Part shown: positions 1 to 52,927 of the stretch, one piece after another | Layout: every line of letters begins with the position of its first letter | How positions within the stretch are numbered: position 1 is the first letter of the stretch | NCBI RefSeq assembly: GCF_017348835.2 | Contig: NZ_CP071375.1 | From: Escherichia coli | GTDB taxonomy: Bacteria; Pseudomonadota; Gammaproteobacteria; Enterobacterales; Enterobacteriaceae | Length of the DNA: 64,000 nt | Direction: 5' to 3' (one strand) | Translations under genes and position numbers: made by a program | The notes under the pieces: model-generated | Told to the model about the DNA's origin: nothing | Seen by the model: the letters and a program-made list of their open reading frames with translations, nothing else | The model's database searches: none

Positions 1-370
1 GCTGGATGCACTGGAGCAGGCGTTGTGGGCCCGTCGGCCGTCCGGCACAATCCATCACAGTGATAAAGGTTCTCAGTATGTATCGCTGGCCTACACGCAG
101 CGGCTTAAGGAAGCCGGATTACTGGCATCAACAGGGAGTACTGGCGACTCGTATGACAACGCGATGGCTGAGAGCATCAATGGTCTTTACAAAGCGGAGG
201 TAATACACCGTAAGAGCTGGAAAAACCGTGCAGAAGTGGAACTGGCCACACTAACGTGGGTGGACTGGTATAACAATCGACGATTGCTGGAAAGGCTGGG
301 CCATATTCCTCCGGCAGAAGCAGAAAAAGCTTATTATGCTTCCATCGGAAATAATGATCTGGCAGCCTGA
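1..370 (+). CDS. IS3-family transposase OrfB, C-terminal portion (5' end lies outside the window)
   Basis: Translation of ORF 23-370 shows IS3-family integrase-core C-terminal features; the reading frame is open to the window start. Confidence 0.85.
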   Translation, partial: LDALEQALWARRPSGTIHHSDKGSQYVSLAYTQRLKEAGLLASTGSTGDSYDNAMAESINGLYKAEVIHRKSWKNRAEVELATLTWVDWYNNRRLLERLGHIPPAEAEKAYYASIGNNDLAA

Positions 371-412
371 GTTCACAGATAAAACACTCTCCAGGAAACC
401 CGGGGCGGTTCA
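1..412 (+). mobile_element. Right-end portion of an IS3-family insertion sequence (IS629/IS1203-like); the window starts inside the element
   Basis: ORF 23-370 is the C-terminal part of an IS3-family OrfB transposase (YDNAMAESINGLYKAEV motif region). The sequence after its stop (c. 371-412) is the reverse complement of a TGAACCGCCCCGGGTTTCCTGGAGA-type terminal inverted repeat. Element identity below family level is from memory. Confidence 0.8.
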
Positions 413-1119
413 AAATGGTGAACTTGTCCTCGATAACAGACCACCACCCCTTCTGCACCTTTAGTCACCAACAGCATGGCGATCTCATACTCTTTTGCCA
501 GGGCGCATATATCCCGATCGTTCTGTGTTTTTCCACTGATAAGTCGCCATTCTTCTTCCGAGAGCTTGACGACATCCGCCAGTTGTAGCGCCTGCCGCAA
601 ACACAAGCGGAGCAAATGCTCGTCTTGCCATAGATCTTCACGAATATTGGGATCGAAGCTGACAAAACCTCCGGCATGCCGGATCGCCGTCATCGCAGTA
701 AATGCGCTGGTACGCGAAGGCTCGGCAGACAACGCAATTGAACAGAGATGTAACCATTCGCCATGTCGCCAGCAGGGCAAGTCTGTCGTCTCTAAAAAAA
801 GATCGGCACTGGGGCGAACCATAAACGTAAATGAACGTTCCCCTTGATCGTTCAGATCGACAAGCACCGTGGATGTCCGGTGCCATTCATCTTGCTTCAG
901 ATACGTGATATCGACTCCCTCAGTTAGCAGAGTTCTTTGCATTAACGCACCAAAAGGATCATCACCGACCCGACCTATAAACCCACTTATTCCGCCTAAT
1001 CTGGCGATTCCCACCGCAACGTTAGCTGGCGCGCCGCCAGGACAAGGCAGTAGGCGCCCGTCTGATTCTGGCAAGAGATCTACTACCGCATCCCCTAAAA
1101 CCCATACTTTGGCTGACAT
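413..1119 (-). pseudogene. cscK: cscK fructokinase (PfkB family), 3'-truncated by the IS insertion
   Basis: ORF 373-1119 begins MSAKVWVLGDAVVDLLPE, the N-terminus of csc-regulon fructokinase. The native sequence ends after ...GQVHHF (about codon 235) and the remaining residues are read from IS sequence; the C-terminal PfkB DTTGAGD-type motif is missing. Confidence 0.8.
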
Positions 1120-1334
1120 TTTTTTCCCTTAAATTCATCTGACTTACGCATAGTGATAAACCTCTTTTTCGCAAAATCGTCATGGATTTACTAAAACATG
1201 CATATTCGATCACAAAATGTCATGGTTAACGTTAACATTTGTGATATTCATCGCATTTATGAAAGTAAGGGACTTTATTTTTATAAAAGTTAACGTTAAC
1301 AATTCACCAAATTTGCTTAACCAGGATGATTAAA
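1120..1334. promoter_or_regulatory. Divergent cscK / cscA control region with two identical 12-bp palindromes GTTAACGTTAAC (c. 1225-1236 and 1289-1300) and TGTGA-containing CRP-like sequence
   Basis: Two perfect copies of the palindrome GTTAACGTTAAC about 64 bp apart in an AT-rich divergent intergenic region next to a LacI-family repressor gene; candidate CscR operators. Confidence 0.55.
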
Positions 1335-2768
1335 ATGACGCAATCTCGATTGCATGCGGCGCAAAACGCACTAGCAAAACTTCATGAGCACCGGGGTAAC
1401 ACTTTCTATCCCCATTTTCACCTCGCGCCTCCTGCCGGGTGGATGAACGATCCAAACGGCCTGATCTGGTTTAACGATCGTTATCACGCGTTTTATCAAC
1501 ATCACCCGATGAGCGAACACTGGGGGCCAATGCACTGGGGACATGCCACCAGCGACGATATGATCCACTGGCAGCATGAGCCTATTGCGCTAGCGCCAGG
1601 AGACGATAATGACAAAGACGGGTGTTTTTCAGGTAGTGCTGTCGATGACAATGGTGTCCTCTCACTTATCTACACCGGACACGTCTGGCTCGATGGTGCA
1701 GGTAATGACGATGCAATTCGCGAAGTACAATGTCTGGCTACCAGTCGGGATGGTATTCATTTCGAGAAACAGGGTGTGATCCTCACTCCACCAGAAGGAA
1801 TCATGCACTTCCGCGATCCTAAAGTGTGGCGTGAAGCCGACTCATGGTGGATGGTAGTCGGGGCGAAAGACCCAGGCAACACGGGGCAGATCCTGCTTTA
1901 TCGCGGCAGTTCATTACGTGAATGGACTTTCGATCGCGTACTGGCCCACGCTGATGCGGGTGAAAGCTATATGTGGGAATGTCCGGACTTTTTCAGCCTT
2001 GGCGATCAGCATTATCTGATGTTTTCCCCGCAGGGAATGAATGCCGAGGGATACAGTTACCGAAATCGCTTTCAAAGTGGCGTAATACCCGGAATGTGGT
2101 CGCCAGGACGACTTTTTGCACAATCCGGGCATTTTACTGAACTTGATAACGGGCATGACTTTTATGCACCACAAAGCTTTGTAGCGAAGGATGGTCGGCG
2201 TATTGTTATCGGCTGGATGGATATGTGGGAATCGCCAATGCCCTCAAAACGTGAAGGCTGGGCAGGCTGCATGACGCTGGCGCGCGAGCTATCAGAGAGC
2301 AATGGCAAACTCCTACAACGCCCGGTACACGAAGCTGAGTCGTTACGCCAGCAGCATCAATCTATCTCTCCCCGCACAATCAGCAATAAATATGTTTTGC
2401 AGGAAAACGCGCAAGCAGTTGAGATTCAGTTGCAGTGGGCGCTGAAGAACAGTGATGCCGAACATTACGGATTACAGCTCGGCACTGGAATGCGGCTGTA
2501 TATTGATAACCAATCTGAGCGACTTGTTTTGTGGCGGTATTACCCACACGAGAATTTAGACGGCTACCGTAGTATTCCCCTCCCGCAGGGTGAGACGCTC
2601 GCCCTAAGGATATTTATCGATACATCATCCGTGGAAGTATTTATTAACGACGGGGAAGCGGTGATGAGTAGTCGAATCTATCCGCAGCCAGAAGAACGGG
2701 AACTGTCGCTTTATGCCTCCCACGGAGTGGCTGTGGTGCAACATGGAGCACTCTGGCAACTGGGTTAG
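1335..2768 (+). CDS. cscA: Sucrose-6-phosphate hydrolase / invertase (GH32)
   Basis: ORF 1326-2768. WMNDPNGL GH32 motif near the N-terminus. Start moved to the second ATG (MTQSRLH...) which has AGGA 8 nt upstream, giving 477 aa. Confidence 0.9.
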   Translation: MTQSRLHAAQNALAKLHEHRGNTFYPHFHLAPPAGWMNDPNGLIWFNDRYHAFYQHHPMSEHWGPMHWGHATSDDMIHWQHEPIALAPGDDNDKDGCFSGSAVDDNGVLSLIYTGHVWLDGAGNDDAIREVQCLATSRDGIHFEKQGVILTPPEGIMHFRDPKVWREADSWWMVVGAKDPGNTGQILLYRGSSLREWTFDRVLAHADAGESYMWECPDFFSLGDQHYLMFSPQGMNAEGYSYRNRFQSGVIPGMWSPGRLFAQSGHFTELDNGHDFYAPQSFVAKDGRRIVIGWMDMWESPMPSKREGWAGCMTLARELSESNGKLLQRPVHEAESLRQQHQSISPRTISNKYVLQENAQAVEIQLQWALKNSDAEHYGLQLGTGMRLYIDNQSERLVLWRYYPHENLDGYRSIPLPQGETLALRIFIDTSSVEVFINDGEAVMSSRIYPQPEERELSLYASHGVAVVQHGALWQLG

Positions 2769-2775
2769 CATAATA

Positions 2776-3771
2776 TCAGGTGGAACAACGGATCAACAGC
2801 GGGCAAGGGATCCGCGTCACACTTCCCCCTTCACGACCTTCAATAATATGCAATGCAGCTTCCCGCCCGATAATGTCATGTGGAAGCTGAATTGTGGTCA
2901 GCGGCGGTAAAAACAGATGCCCGACGCCAACCAGATTATCAAAGCCCATTACGGCGACATCCTGCGGGATACGTACCCCCTTCGCCAGGAGAACCTGATA
3001 AGCCACAAAGGCTGCGCGATCGTTACCACATATCAGAACATCAAAATCTGGTTTGCCCGATTTGAAGTGGTCATTGAGTAAACTTGCGAGATCGGTGTAG
3101 TGATCATCACCTGTTGCCATGTGAAATTGTTTCACCTCAGCCAGATCTCGTCCAGCATCACGCCAGGCCTGCTCAAATCCCTGCCGACGATACCCTGTTA
3201 CCAACGCACTTTCCGGTAGCCAGAAGCATAACGGTTGACGATAGCCCGCCGCGAGCAAATGCTGTGTTGATTCATATTGTGCAGTGTAATCATCAGGGAT
3301 ATAACTGGGTAACGCTGGGTCATCCGCCACACAGTTCGCCAATACAATATTTTCACCATACAGAGACTCAGGCAGCGTGATATGTCGCAGCCCCATTGTA
3401 GTATAGATAATGCCATCCGGACGGTGGGCAAGCAGCTGACGTGCCGCGCGGGCAGCGTCATCTTCAGAAAAAATATTGATTAAAAAACTATTCCAGCCGA
3501 ACTCGCTGGCGGTTTGCTCAATGGCAAGCAGAATATCAACAGAGAAAGGAGTGGTAGCAGTGTCCTGCGCCAGCACGGCGAGAGTCGACGGCTTACGTCC
3601 TTGAGCGCGCATCTTACGGGCGGAAAGATCAGGAACATAATTCAGGGTCTGGATTGCCTGCAATACGCGGTCACGCGTTGCAGGACGCACAGATTCTGCA
3701 TTATGCATCACCCGGGAGACTGTCATCATCGACACTCCCGCCAGGCGTGCGACATCCTTTAATGAAGCCAT
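2776..3771 (-). CDS. cscR: LacI-family sucrose operon repressor
   Basis: ORF 2776-3957 trimmed to the internal ATG giving MASLKDVARLAGVSMMTVSRV (LacI-type HTH) and a 331-aa product; convergent with cscA. Confidence 0.88.
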   Translation of the reverse strand: MASLKDVARLAGVSMMTVSRVMHNAESVRPATRDRVLQAIQTLNYVPDLSARKMRAQGRKPSTLAVLAQDTATTPFSVDILLAIEQTASEFGWNSFLINIFSEDDAARAARQLLAHRPDGIIYTTMGLRHITLPESLYGENIVLANCVADDPALPSYIPDDYTAQYESTQHLLAAGYRQPLCFWLPESALVTGYRRQGFEQAWRDAGRDLAEVKQFHMATGDDHYTDLASLLNDHFKSGKPDFDVLICGNDRAAFVAYQVLLAKGVRIPQDVAVMGFDNLVGVGHLFLPPLTTIQLPHDIIGREAALHIIEGREGGSVTRIPCPLLIRCST

Positions 3772-4001
3772 ACCCAAGCCGTTTGTCGTAAAACGGGCAC
3801 TGTAGCAGAAACAGACGTCACTGGCGAGATCCAACGCCCTATCACCTGACACGGCAATACAATAAAAAATAACAATAATTCCCGGCCAATTGTCCCCAAT
3901 TCCGCCTCTGTTCTCGCCAACGAGTAACCATATAGGCAAGTAAGTAAAACATGCCAACTGGCATCGCCAACCTGGAGAAGAAAATATAAATATGGATCAT
4001 T

Positions 4002-4220
4002 GTGCTGCCGCTGTATCCCGACATCAGCCCGGAAATTATTGCGATTGCTATCGGTTCAGGTGCAATTGGCTGCACTATCGTTACGGACTCGCTTTTCTGG
4101 CTGGTGAAGCAATATTGCGGCGCTACGCTCAATGAAACATTTAAATACTATACGACAGCGACATTTATCGCTTCAGTCGTCGCTCTGGCGGGCACATTCC
4201 TGCTGTCATTTATCATCTAA
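4002..4220 (+). pseudogene. dsdX: 3' remnant of dsdX (D-serine/gluconate-family permease), C-terminal ~72 codons only
   Basis: ORF 4002-4220 encodes a hydrophobic C-terminal segment ending ...[12 protein letters not shown], immediately upstream of dsdA as in the dsdXA operon; no N-terminal part and no dsdC are present. Confidence 0.75.
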
Positions 4221-41726: not shown

Positions 41727-41802
<76 letters not shown>

Positions 41803-41841
41803 ACGATGCGTTTACGTACCAAATTTGCTGGGTGCAAAATT

Positions 41842-41917
<76 letters not shown>

Positions 41918-44615: not shown

Positions 44616-44691
44616 GGGTGATTAGCTCAGCTGGGAGAGCACCTCCCTTACAAGGAGGGGGTCGGCGGTTCGATCCCGTCATCACCCACCA
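44616..44691 (+). tRNA. valU: tRNA-Val (UAC)
   Basis: GGGTGATTAGCTCAGCTGGGAGAGCACCTCCCTTACAAGGAGGGGGTCGGCGGTTCGATCCCGTCATCACCCACCA. Confidence 0.95.
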
Positions 44692-44735
44692 ACTACTTTA
44701 TGTAGTCTCCGCCGTGTAGCAAGAAATTGAGAAGT

Positions 44736-44811
44736 GGGTGATTAGCTCAGCTGGGAGAGCACCTCCCTTACAAGGAGGGGGTCGGCGGTTCGATCCCGTC
44801 ATCACCCACCA
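44736..44811 (+). tRNA. valX: tRNA-Val (UAC), copy 2
   Basis: Identical 76-nt repeat of valU. Confidence 0.95.
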
Positions 44812-44857
44812 CTTTCTCACCAGCTAAATTTCTTGTAAAAATGTGAAGTACCGAAGT

Positions 44858-44933
44858 GGGTGATTAGCTCAGCTGGGAGAGCACCTCCCTTACAAGGAGG
44901 GGGTCGGCGGTTCGATCCCGTCATCACCCACCA
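44858..44933 (+). tRNA. valY: tRNA-Val (UAC), copy 3
   Basis: Identical 76-nt repeat of valU. Confidence 0.95.
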
Positions 44934-44937
44934 CTTC

Positions 44938-45013
44938 GGGTCGTTAGCTCAGTTGGTAGAGCAGTTGACTTTTAATCAATTGGTCGCAGGTTCGAATCCT
45001 GCACGACCCACCA
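44938..45013 (+). tRNA. lysV: tRNA-Lys (UUU)
   Basis: GGGTCGTTAGCTCAGTTGGTAGAGCAGTTGACTTTTAATCAATTGGTCGCAGGTTCGAATCCTGCACGACCCACCA. Confidence 0.95.
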
Positions 45014-47695: not shown

Positions 47696-49720
<2,025 letters not shown>

Positions 49721-49781
49721 TCAATGCTAAAAACCCCCGACAAGCGGGGGTTCGAAGAGGAGTTAATTTGCCTTAAGTGTA

Positions 49782-50780
49782 TCAGGCGTTGGCGTCTTTG
49801 ACTTCGCGGATGATGTCCTGGTACTCGCGCAATTTCTGCGGAGTCATCATACGGCGCTGATCGTCAAGCACGACACCGCCCACTTCATCGGCAATATGCT
49901 GCGCAGATTGCAGCATCAGCTTGAAGTTCTGCAGCTCGTCACCGTAAGACGGTACCTGCATAAAGATAGTGACACCCGGAGTAGTGAAATCCTTCATTTC
50001 AGGATCAAAGGTTCCCGGTTTCACCATATTCGCCAGGCTGAATAACGCCGGGCCGCTGCCATCCGGGCTAAGATGACGATGGTAAATATTCATATCGCCA
50101 AAAATGAAGCCCGCTTGTTGAATGCTGTTAAGAAGCAGTTCACCGTTTAGCTCGCTACCGTGATGCGCCGCGACGTTCATGATAATCACCGCTTCTTTGC
50201 GCTTCGGTTTATCCATAACTGGAGCCGGTTCCGCTACAGGCTCAGGCTGTGGTGCCGCTACGGGTTCTGCAGGCTGGAAAGCCTGTTGTGCCGGTTGCGG
50301 TGCTGAATGCACTGGCTGCGGCGCTGGCGCGACCTGTGGCGAAACTGGCTGCTGCAACGGCTGTTCAGGCTGCGGCTGATAGGCAGGCTGCTGCACGGGT
50401 TGCTGCACCGGCTGCGCTGGACGCGGAGCATGTTGCGGCGGTACCTGCGCTTCAGGCGGCTGCTGGACCGGTTGACGCGGCTGCGCAGACGCATAAGGCG
50501 GTTGGTACTGGTGTTGCGGCGACGGACGAGCAGCCTCATGCTCCTGGGCATTAGCCGGGGCATGATTCACGCGGTGAACACGAACCTCACCAACGCCCTC
50601 ATCATCTTCGACATCCTCGTCATAAGAATCGTCGTCACGTTTTGACTTCATTCGTTTTAATGGCCGATCGCGGAACATAGAAGATCGTTCTTTACGGCTG
50701 GTCCAGAAACCATGTACCAGTAAAGCGATTATGGCGATCGCGCCAACAATGATTAATATCAGACGCAAATCCTGCATCAT
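49782..50780 (-). CDS. zipA: Cell division protein ZipA (FtsZ membrane anchor)
   Basis: ORF 49782-50831 trimmed to the internal ATG ([26 protein letters not shown]), about 332 aa; N-terminal TM, long P/Q-rich linker and C-terminal FtsZ-binding domain. Confidence 0.92.
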
Positions 50781-51009
50781 TATATTCTCTGTTGTTCTAA
50801 CACCTTGCCACCACGGCAAACATTTACTCACTAAGAGTATTTGCCGATTACCTCAAGTGCAAGTGCACTATTAACTTTCACAGCACAAAGATAGATGAAA
50901 TCGTGCTTTTTGCTGTTTTTTCGAACATATCCTAACTGTCCATTGCGCAATTACCCGGTAAAATACGCACAATTTTCCTGGGATTGGTCAAAAGGAGCTC
51001 ATCCTGATT

Positions 51010-51771
51010 ATGGTTTCATCATTCACATCTGCCCCACGCAGCGGTTTTTACTATTTTGCGCAAGGCTGGAAGCTCGTCTCGCAACCTGGGATTCGGCGTT
51101 TCGTTATTTTACCGCTGCTGGTCAATATTTTGTTGATGGGGGGCGCATTCTGGTGGCTCTTTACGCAACTCGATGTCTGGATCCCGACTCTCATGAGTTA
51201 TGTTCCGGACTGGTTACAATGGCTGAGCTATCTGTTGTGGCCTCTGGCTGTCATCTCTGTGCTGTTAGTGTTTGGCTATTTCTTCTCCACGATTGCTAAC
51301 TGGATTGCCGCTCCGTTTAACGGTTTATTGGCTGAACAACTGGAAGCACGATTGACTGGCGCTACACCGCCAGATACCGGGATTTTCGGTATCATGAAAG
51401 ATGTGCCGCGAATCATGAAACGCGAATGGCAAAAATTTGCCTGGTATCTGCCGCGCGCAATTGTATTACTAATTCTTTACTTCATCCCTGGTATTGGGCA
51501 AACCGTCGCGCCGGTACTGTGGTTCCTGTTTAGCGCCTGGATGTTAGCCATCCAGTATTGCGATTACCCCTTCGATAACCACAAAGTGCCGTTTAAAGAG
51601 ATGCGCACCGCCCTGCGCACACGCAAAATCACCAATATGCAGTTTGGTGCTTTAACCAGCCTGTTTACGATGATCCCGCTGCTTAATCTGTTCATCATGC
51701 CCGTTGCCGTTTGTGGCGCGACGGCGATGTGGGTCGATTGCTATCGCGATAAACACGCGATGTGGCGGTAA
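51010..51771 (+). CDS. cysZ: Sulfate transporter CysZ
   Basis: 253-aa membrane ORF starting [20 protein letters not shown]. Confidence 0.93.
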
Positions 51772-51955: not shown

Positions 51956-52927
51956 ATGAGTAAGATTTTTGAAGATAACTCGCTGACTATCGGTCACACG
52001 CCGCTGGTTCGCCTGAATCGCATCGGTAACGGACGCATTCTGGCGAAGGTGGAATCTCGTAACCCCAGCTTCAGCGTTAAGTGCCGTATCGGTGCCAACA
52101 TGATTTGGGATGCCGAAAAGCGCGGCGTGCTGAAACCAGGCGTTGAACTGGTTGAACCGACCAGCGGTAATACCGGGATTGCACTGGCCTATGTAGCTGC
52201 CGCTCGCGGTTACAAACTCACCCTGACCATGCCAGAAACCATGAGTATTGAACGCCGCAAGCTGCTGAAAGCGTTAGGTGCAAACCTGGTGCTGACCGAA
52301 GGTGCTAAAGGCATGAAAGGCGCAATCCAAAAAGCAGAAGAAATTGTCGCCAGCAATCCAGAGAAATACCTGCTGCTGCAACAATTCAGCAATCCGGCAA
52401 ACCCTGAAATTCACGAAAAAACCACCGGTCCGGAGATCTGGGAAGATACCGACGGTCAGGTTGATGTATTTATTGCTGGCGTTGGGACTGGCGGTACGCT
52501 GACCGGCGTCAGCCGCTACATTAAAGGCACCAAAGGCAAGACCGATCTTATCTCTGTCGCCGTTGAGCCAACCGATTCTCCAGTTATCGCCCAGGCGCTG
52601 GCAGGTGAAGAGATTAAACCTGGCCCGCATAAAATTCAGGGTATTGGCGCTGGTTTTATCCCGGCTAACCTCGATCTCAAGCTGATCGATAAAGTCATTG
52701 GCATTACCAATGAAGAAGCCATTTCTACCGCGCGTCGTCTGATGGAAGAAGAAGGTATTCTTGCAGGTATCTCTTCTGGAGCAGCTGTTGCTGCGGCGTT
52801 GAAACTACAAGAAGATGAAAGCTTTACCAACAAGAATATTGTGGTTATTCTACCGTCATCGGGTGAGCGTTATTTAAGCACCGCATTGTTTGCCGATCTC
52901 TTCACTGAGAAAGAACTGCAACAGTAA
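51956..52927 (+). CDS. cysK: Cysteine synthase A (O-acetylserine sulfhydrylase A)
   Basis: 323-aa ORF with the PLP-lysine region (…[11 protein letters not shown]…). Confidence 0.95.

Follow-up and report, generated by a model that had tools for sequence, protein, structure and literature searches.

The gene at positions 49782..50780 on the minus strand of the Escherichia coli DNA analysed here, a 64,000-nucleotide stretch referred to below as the window, is zipA, and it encodes a 332-amino acid form of ZipA, a bitopic inner-membrane protein that binds FtsZ. The explanation that best accounts for all of the observations, to which we assign a probability of about 95%, is that the central proline- and glutamine-rich (P/Q-rich) segment of ZipA is a flexible tether, that slippage within its coding DNA has generated a series of in-frame length alleles, and that the 332-residue form is a common member of that series. 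The tether function is taken from the literature, while the identity of the gene, its composition, the allele frequencies and the junction homologies reported below are our own observations. Public databases and the literature already contain the gene, its textbook P/Q tether and the very same 332-residue allele, and the finding is in that sense an ordinary one.

Identification of the gene is secure, being supported by Pfam, TIGR02205, PDB chains and synteny with cysZ and ligA. Translation gave 332 codons and a TGA stop without interruption. Residues 198-321 of the product matched the Pfam domain ZipA_C (PF04354), scoring 156.8 bits where the cut-off is 23, and the product matched the NCBIfam equivalog TIGR02205 (septum_zipA, “cell division protein ZipA”) with 417.6 bits against 119.65, over the entire model (1-284 of 284). 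The full-length 328-residue chain of PDB entry 9iue (E. coli ZipA) also matched the window protein, and C-domain constructs of 139-144 residues (1F46, 1F47, 1F7W, 1Y2F) aligned to residues 189-332, with E-values for the PDB C-domain chains of 1e-88 to 1e-93. The mechanical list of open reading frames (ORFs) carries the zipA frame up to a GTG at 50831, giving 349 amino acids; the start is the ATG at 50780 according to the annotation of strain PE164, which differs from the window at 2 of 64,000 positions. The gene and its neighbours are arranged as follows:

49782..50780, minus strand: zipA coding sequence (translation, PF04354, TIGR02205, 100% DNA identity to the PE164 zipA, WP_001299866.1)
47696-49711, minus strand: ligA, downstream of zipA on the same strand
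51010-51771, plus strand: cysZ, divergent from zipA
51956-52927, plus strand: cysK, divergent from zipA

The cysZ / zipA-ligA gene order is also annotated in strains ER2683, PE164, ML775 and EM10-18-28. As the C-domain of the window protein is unchanged relative to the K-12 protein whose crystal structure includes the FtsZ peptide, binding of the FtsZ C-terminal peptide and an essential role in division would be expected of it as well. An Rfam scan of the whole window returned six tRNAs only and no RNA family in zipA. A hairpin following zipA gave a folding z-score of only -1.44, and the promoter/terminator scan gave no flag for it.

The 332-residue protein divides into four parts, listed here in order from the N-terminus:

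50697..50780, minus strand: residues 1-28, a short periplasmic N-terminus and single transmembrane helix (hydrophobic stretch at residues 7-26, AlphaFold2 helix, K-12 identity, domain map of PMC6904479)
50526..50696, minus strand: residues 29-85, a charged segment, R/K and then D/E (R9 D8 E7 K4; identical to K-12; low pLDDT)
50217..50525, minus strand: residues 86-188, the P/Q-rich low-complexity linker, 103 residues against 99-100 in K-12 (composition, low pLDDT, site of nearly all natural indels)
49785..50216, minus strand: residues 189-332, the globular FtsZ-binding domain (PDB matches, Pfam ZipA_C at 198-321, pLDDT 92-98)

This layout follows the published map of K-12 ZipA, in which residues 1-6 are periplasmic, 7-28 transmembrane, 29-85 charged, 86-185 P/Q and 186-328 globular (PMC6904479), and residues 1-28 of the window protein are identical to K-12 in the protein alignment. 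AlphaFold2, run on the window protein with a 43-sequence alignment, predicted a confident helix at residues 2-35 (pLDDT 85-95) and a confident alpha/beta domain from about residue 190 (pLDDT 92-98); the stretch between residue 36 and about residue 175 was given no secondary structure (pLDDT 45-62). Experimental disorder of the spacer comes from the literature and concerns the K-12 protein only (PMC6904479). In that paper the P/Q domain is characterised, with reference to Ohashi et al. (2002), as a flexible tether that is intrinsically unstructured, and the SMALP study it reports argues that the domain is more compact, and its motion more restricted, than a free-ranging chain (PMC6904479). A second FtsZ contact on ZipA has been placed on the globular domain rather than the linker (PMC8669495).

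The composition of the linker sets it apart from the remainder of the protein. Residues 86-188 comprise 32 P, 26 Q, 16 A and 10 V out of 103, such that P and Q make up 56% and P, Q, A, V and E together 86%, whereas the P+Q share of the transmembrane, charged and C-terminal parts is 4-12%. In a sliding window, entropy drops to 2.2-2.6 bits over the linker, as against 3.4-3.8 bits in the folded domain, and the linker DNA has a GC content of 66.7% against 50.4% in the rest of zipA. Nearly the whole tract is built from CAG (19), CCG (16), GCG (8) and CAA, CCT and CCA (7 each). The earlier note on this DNA had described a long, internally repetitive, low-complexity P/Q-rich tract. The P/Q richness and low complexity were borne out, and the motifs that it named are present (QPVQQP three times, PQP four times, APQP three times and QPV five times), but “repetitive” was an overstatement. 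Tandem Repeats Finder (TRF) detected no arrays between 49700 and 50900 at a minimum score of 30, and the excess of repeated k-mers over composition-preserving shuffles of the linker was marginal (P = 0.07 for k = 3, 0.04 for k = 4 and 0.045 for k = 6). A reading of the segment as a tandem-repeat tract was dropped on these two grounds. At the DNA level the repeats consist of scattered direct repeats of 10-17 nt and a single 12-bp tandem pair. The tract has a biased composition and is seeded with short direct repeats, and is not a repeat array. Because this repeat structure is weak, the label “hypermutable” should not be pushed far.

The zipA gene of the K-12-derived strain ER2683 is 987 bp long and encodes 328 amino acids, in agreement with the figures of about 332 and 328 residues that the earlier note gave for the product here and for that of K-12. 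The two alleles differ by one 12-bp indel (GTGCAGCAACCC, encoding PVQQ) and five substitutions, of which four are synonymous and one, H120R, is not. The window allele is thus identical to that of K-12 in neither length nor sequence, identity being the result that the earlier note had said would count against it. Two features mark the difference:

50385-50408, minus strand: tandem pair of 12-bp units, GTGCAGCAACCC then GTGCAGCAGCCT (PVQQ-PVQQ), from the DNA alignment; direct-repeat family D1, spacing 12
50421..50423, minus strand: codon 120, CGT (Arg) in the window and CAT (His) in K-12, from the DNA and protein alignments

The two units of the window are identical at 10 of 12 positions and differ at the other two. 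K-12 lacks one of them, which the alignment places at 50397-50408, so that where the window reads CCG GTG CAG CAA CCC GTG CAG CAG CCT (PVQQPVQQP), K-12 reads CCG GTG CAG CAG CCT (PVQQP); the junction has an exact 8-bp homology, GTGCAGCA. The unit is doubled at the same site in ZipA of both E. albertii (331 amino acids, reading QPVQQPQPVPQP) and E. marmotae (330 amino acids, reading HPVQQPQPVQQP). Because these two species have the doubled QPVQQP motif, the single unit of K-12 is more probably a derived deletion than the second unit of the window is a gain. This polarity is tentative, since it draws on two outgroup species and on protein alignment within low-complexity sequence that is inherently ambiguous.

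Frequencies of the two forms were estimated from 5,426 complete RefSeq E. coli genomes, in 5,425 of which zipA was detected. Identity bands of a whole-gene megablast cannot separate the 328- and 332-residue classes, and 100-bp junction queries were therefore used in both directions. The query centred on the tandem pair of the window matched 2,379 records at 95% identity or higher and 3,042 at 80-90%, the band that corresponds to the 12-bp gap; in a further 68 records the alignment covered less than 80% of the query. With the reciprocal K-12 query, 3,075 records matched at 95% or higher. This second query found only 5,052 records altogether, and its 80-90% count (1,975) undercounts the 332-type class, presumably because nearby SNPs cost some 332-type alleles the 28-bp seed. 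With partial matches subtracted, the 332-type with two units is carried by roughly 2,310-2,325 genomes (about 43%) and the single-unit K-12 type by about 3,040 (about 56%). Among the sampled rows, the 999-bp gene occurred in O157:H7, O145 and O25b:H4-ST131 strains, and the 987-bp form or 12-bp gap in K-12, BL21, DH5a, O111:H8 and O9:H10. The window allele is one of two major species-wide alleles.

Other natural lengths are rarer. Beyond the old 12-bp dimorphism they account for only about 1.2% of complete genomes. E. coli ZipA in a large public protein collection ranges from 295 to 375 amino acids. An annotated and intact zipA of 903 bp (300 amino acids) in the O103 strain ML775 lacks residues 122-154, and one of 888 bp (295 amino acids) in strain EM10-18-28 lacks residues 106-142. 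The 309-residue protein was found on 827 contigs and the 308-residue protein on 371. Four larger deletions were counted in the complete genomes with a concatenated junction-specific query at a stringent E-value:

300-residue type (32-residue deletion): 30 complete genomes, including O103 strain ML775
309-residue type (23-residue deletion): 22 complete genomes, including O25:H4, and 2 others in which the junction is the same but the background different
308-residue type: 3 complete genomes
295-residue type: 1 complete genome

In total, larger in-frame linker deletions occur in at least 58 complete genomes (1.1%), with about 10 of the 68 partial-coverage records left untyped. The earlier note had proposed aligning E. 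coli zipA alleles to quantify linker indels. Pairwise alignment of the best 120 protein hits located nearly all of them at residues 89-185; indels outside the linker were seen in only four single-record proteins, at residues 28, 54-55 or 80. The intact full-length proteins among these hits matched the window protein at no fewer than 81 of the first 85 and 142 of the last 144 residues, and the few hits falling below this range were an N-terminally truncated protein (P0119) and two single-contig proteins with divergent N-termini (P0015 and P0117). Length variants known from a single record, for example the 375-residue protein on one 3.5-kb contig, could be assembly artefacts.

Seven variant alleles, compared with the window allele at the DNA level, covered five deletions and two insertions. 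Every one of the five deletions is flanked by an exact direct repeat of 7-9 bp, one copy of which is kept:

12-bp deletion: flanking repeat GTGCAGCA
69-bp deletion: flanking repeat GCGCAGCCG
72-bp deletion: flanking repeat CAGCAGCC
111-bp deletion: flanking repeat CAGCAGCC
96-bp deletion: flanking repeat CGCAGCC

In each case this homology is the maximum available to a deletion of that length at any placement in the linker. At randomly chosen placements the mean homology is 1.7-1.9 bp, with 3-7.5% of placements as high as the observed value (P of 0.03-0.075 each). Both insertions are tandem duplications: the 349-residue allele carries an exact 51-bp tandem duplicate, and the 354-residue allele has three copies of a 39-bp unit that encodes 13 residues. 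In protein alignment, the 375-, 355- and 351-residue proteins also resemble duplications, of 43 and 23 residues. Junctions of this kind are what replication slippage, or recombination between short direct repeats, classically leaves behind, and they suggest that one of these processes produced the alleles. The small set of codons in the linker (CAG, CCG, GCG, CCT, CCA, CAA) creates many direct repeats of 7-9 bp in codon phase, and slippage or illegitimate recombination between them would then yield in-frame deletions and tandem duplications that the cell could tolerate. That only in-frame outcomes are seen is probably due to the codon phasing of the repeats together with what we infer to be selection on an essential gene. 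Deletions bounded by direct repeats and insertions that are tandem duplications therefore support the proposal, already made in the earlier note, that zipA is prone to in-frame length change, and the 328-, 332-, 295-, 300-, 308- and 309-residue alleles in complete genomes, with public proteins of 295-375 residues, bear it out.

Four ORFs in other frames overlap the linker, together spanning 50179..50645, and appear in the ORF list as follows:

50179-50379, plus strand: ORF of 66 amino acids
50249-50554, plus strand: ORF of 101 amino acids
50258-50563, minus strand: ORF of 101 amino acids
50307-50645, plus strand: ORF of 112 amino acids

With lengths of 66-112 amino acids, one of them might be taken for a real gene, the candidates being 50307-50645 (plus strand, 112 amino acids) and 50258-50563 (minus strand, 101 amino acids). 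One antisense frame does contain a 71-residue stop-free stretch that slightly exceeds those of most codon-shuffled linkers (P = 0.047), an unremarkable value among five frames tested. The alternative frames hold 0-4 stops each over about 102 codons of the linker, compared with 2-14 over about 143 codons of the C-domain. When the linker codons were shuffled with the flanks kept, however, 42-100% of shuffles gave longest stop-free stretches in the other alternative frames at least as long as those observed, so that these are typical or short. The translations are low-complexity Arg/Leu/Cys/Ala mirrors of the P, Q and A codons. A Pfam search of all four gave no hits at E ≤ 0.1, no Rfam family lies in the region, and the RefSeq annotation of PE164 has zipA there and none of the four. 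Moreover, substitutions among eight alleles follow the zipA frame: of the 24, 19 affect the third position of a zipA codon, and the ratio of synonymous to non-synonymous changes is 20 to 4 (9 to 3 within the linker). A coding role for any of the ORFs is therefore extremely improbable. They are judged to be non-genic by-products of the CAG/CCG/GCG codon composition, and the description of them in the earlier note as spurious stands.

Further alternatives concern the length variation itself. Assembly errors are classically found in GC-rich DNA of low complexity, and the four extra residues of the window protein could on that account be a sequencing or assembly artefact, or else a mutation private to one strain. 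This reading was refuted by the population counts, as the 12-bp unit is present in about 2,300 complete genomes, O157:H7 and O25b:H4-ST131 strains among them, the identical 999-bp gene is annotated in PE164, and the cluster of the 332-residue protein in the public collection has 3,876 member sequences; its probability is practically nil. The many natural length classes, the 12-bp tandem pair and the tandem duplications of 39-51 bp could also recall a simple-sequence contingency locus, where frequent and reversible length change in a tandem array would switch a ZipA phenotype. A locus of that kind has a head-to-tail array, whereas here TRF found none at a score of 30 or more and there are two units only, themselves different at 2 of 12 positions. 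Both major alleles are common to thousands of genomes each, and every larger deletion has one junction that recurs (in 30, 22, 3 and 1 genomes), a pattern that fits inheritance over rapid switching. The reading frame is kept in all of the variants, leaving no room for on/off switching, and such a locus is very unlikely. Less improbable, though still unlikely, is that the length of the linker is selected adaptively in particular lineages and does not drift neutrally, with selection acting for example on the distance between Z-ring and membrane or on escape from ZipA-dependent inhibitors. Deletions have become fixed in sets of genomes (32 residues in 30, including ML775; 23 residues in 22, including O25:H4), spacer length stays within 130-190 residues across 43 homologues, which suggests some constraint, and phage lambda Kil acts through ZipA (PMC3961180). 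Neutral inheritance would, however, lead one equally to expect that related genomes share a deletion, and the two major alleles exist side by side at 43% and 56%. That the natural series of tether lengths, from the deletions to duplications of 43 additional residues, might be adaptive rather than neutral is a proposal to which we give little weight; should tether length change Z-ring-membrane spacing, division timing or inhibitor sensitivity, the polymorphism would be adaptive.

The reading that we retain, a tether whose in-frame alleles arise by slippage, matters little for discovery, although it has useful by-products: the allele frequencies (about 43%, about 56% and at least 1.1% other), the junction homology for slippage and a warning on K-12 numbering. 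The 328-residue ZipA of K-12 is not a species-wide reference, as about 43% of complete genomes have the 332-residue form, and residue numbers in the FtsZ-binding domain are 4 off between the major alleles and up to 37 off in rarer ones. Gene callers should be expected to report long spurious ORFs across this GC-rich linker tract. The series from 295 to 375 amino acids represents viable isolates that have lost roughly a third of the tether or added about 40% to it, and could serve as a free data set relating tether length to Z-ring anchoring. No description of natural zipA length polymorphism or of linker-length experiments was found in the literature searched, which excluded most subscription journals, and this is no evidence of novelty.

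The role of the linker as a tether is consistent with the way in which the spacer varies among more distant relatives. Across 43 diverse full-length ZipA homologues the spacer is 130-190 residues long (median 159, sd 15), and its majority-residue fraction averages 0.31; for the C-domain the figures are 138-161 residues (sd 4.7) and 0.59. Only the window protein and its closest relative have a P/Q-rich spacer (38% P+Q over the whole spacer); in the remaining homologues P+Q amounts to 9-24% of the spacer, and E, S, A, D or K are abundant instead. In a wider search, matches in two segments placed the start of the C-domain anywhere from about residue 111 to 267. What is conserved is the presence of a disordered spacer whose length keeps to about the same order of magnitude, without conserved sequence or exact length, and this fits an entropic tether. 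In Gammaproteobacteria, ZipA is the essential anchor by which FtsZ filaments are tied to the inner membrane. The N-terminal transmembrane helix would hold ZipA in that membrane while FtsZ is bound, through its conserved C-terminal peptide, by the C-terminal globular domain, and the charged and P/Q-rich segments between them would form an unstructured flexible tether whose sequence and exact length are loosely constrained. Indels in the linker would be tolerated because the spacer is such an entropic tether.

Among known systems, the closest is the 332-residue ZipA of the pig isolate PE164 (WP_001299866.1), which is the same allele with 100% DNA identity over 999 bp. K-12 ZipA (9iue; C-domain 1F46, 1F47 and 1F7W) occupies the same locus between cysZ and ligA and has the same domain order, with no differences in residues 1-85 or the C-terminal domain in the protein alignment; the window allele departs from it in the additional PVQQ (12 bp), in Arg120 for His and in four synonymous changes. 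The other E. coli alleles likewise share the N- and C-terminal parts of the window protein, and all of their differences from it are in-frame indels in the P/Q segment, the 295-, 300-, 308- and 309-residue alleles having 23-37 fewer linker residues and the 349-, 354- and 375-residue alleles 17-43 extra. Within the same machine, the FtsZ C-terminal linker is also an intrinsically disordered, low-complexity and poorly conserved spacer, leading from a folded domain to a membrane-tethering interaction, and it is reportedly tolerant of sequence change. The FtsZ linker belongs to another protein and has another composition, whereas the ZipA spacer is anchored to the membrane directly by its transmembrane helix.

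The window is ordinary core chromosome, extending from the evgAS/emrKY region to murR. Its full-length alignment with the chromosome of E. coli strain PE164, which was isolated from a pig in Nanjing, was free of gaps and contained just 2 differences in 64,000 positions; the matching stretch there lies in reverse orientation at NZ_CP114128.1 1366522-1430521. The RefSeq annotation of PE164 was transferred onto the window to describe its left end (window 1-4220), and the two tRNA clusters were located with Rfam, their identities being those annotated in PE164.

Features of the window (left end from the PE164 RefSeq annotation)
1-370: IS3-family transposase, cut
412-1119: kinase pseudogene without its C-terminus
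1335-2768: cscA, sucrose-6-phosphate hydrolase
2776-3771: LacI-family regulator
4002-4220: dsdX remnant without its N-terminus, adjoining dsdA
41730-41917, minus strand: cluster of two tRNAs (Ala-Ala)
44616-45010, plus strand: cluster of four tRNAs (Val-Val-Val-Lys)
49725-49753, minus strand: GC-rich hairpin, AACCCCCG-CUUGU-CGGGGGUU, followed by a U-run, within the zipA-ligA gap

At the left end, the dsdC/dsdX site appears to have taken up the sucrose (csc) island. The kinase pseudogene was read as cscK-like, and looks to have been additionally truncated by the IS3 element. The tRNA clusters flank gltX in the PE164 annotation, and both are ordinary.

Downstream of zipA, a gap of 70 bp separates its stop codon from the start of the co-directional ligA. 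The hairpin within this gap resembles an intrinsic terminator or an attenuator lying between the two genes; it was not flagged by the terminator scan, and its fold z-score was only -1.44.

A nucleotide search of 5,426 complete E. coli genomes found no zipA match in one genome, two copies in another, and two matches on records labelled as plasmids, all of which could reflect misassigned replicons, duplications or assembly problems. Two of the larger linker deletions in ZipA were each common to a set of complete genomes: that of 32 aa to 30 genomes of ∼5.4-5.6 Mb from humans and cattle, including the O103 strain ML775, and that of 23 aa to 22 genomes of ∼5.0-5.2 Mb, most of them of human origin and one of them from an O25:H4 strain. 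Each deletion seems to mark a lineage.

Among the diverse ZipA homologues compared (P0124-P0270, alignment A4), the spacer between the N-terminal anchor and the FtsZ-binding domain is P/Q-rich only in Escherichia and its closest relative. Elsewhere it is rich in E, S, A, D or K, with P and Q together making up 9-24%. Spacer length remains at 130-190 aa while composition varies, indicating that composition is free to change, whereas approximate length is kept.
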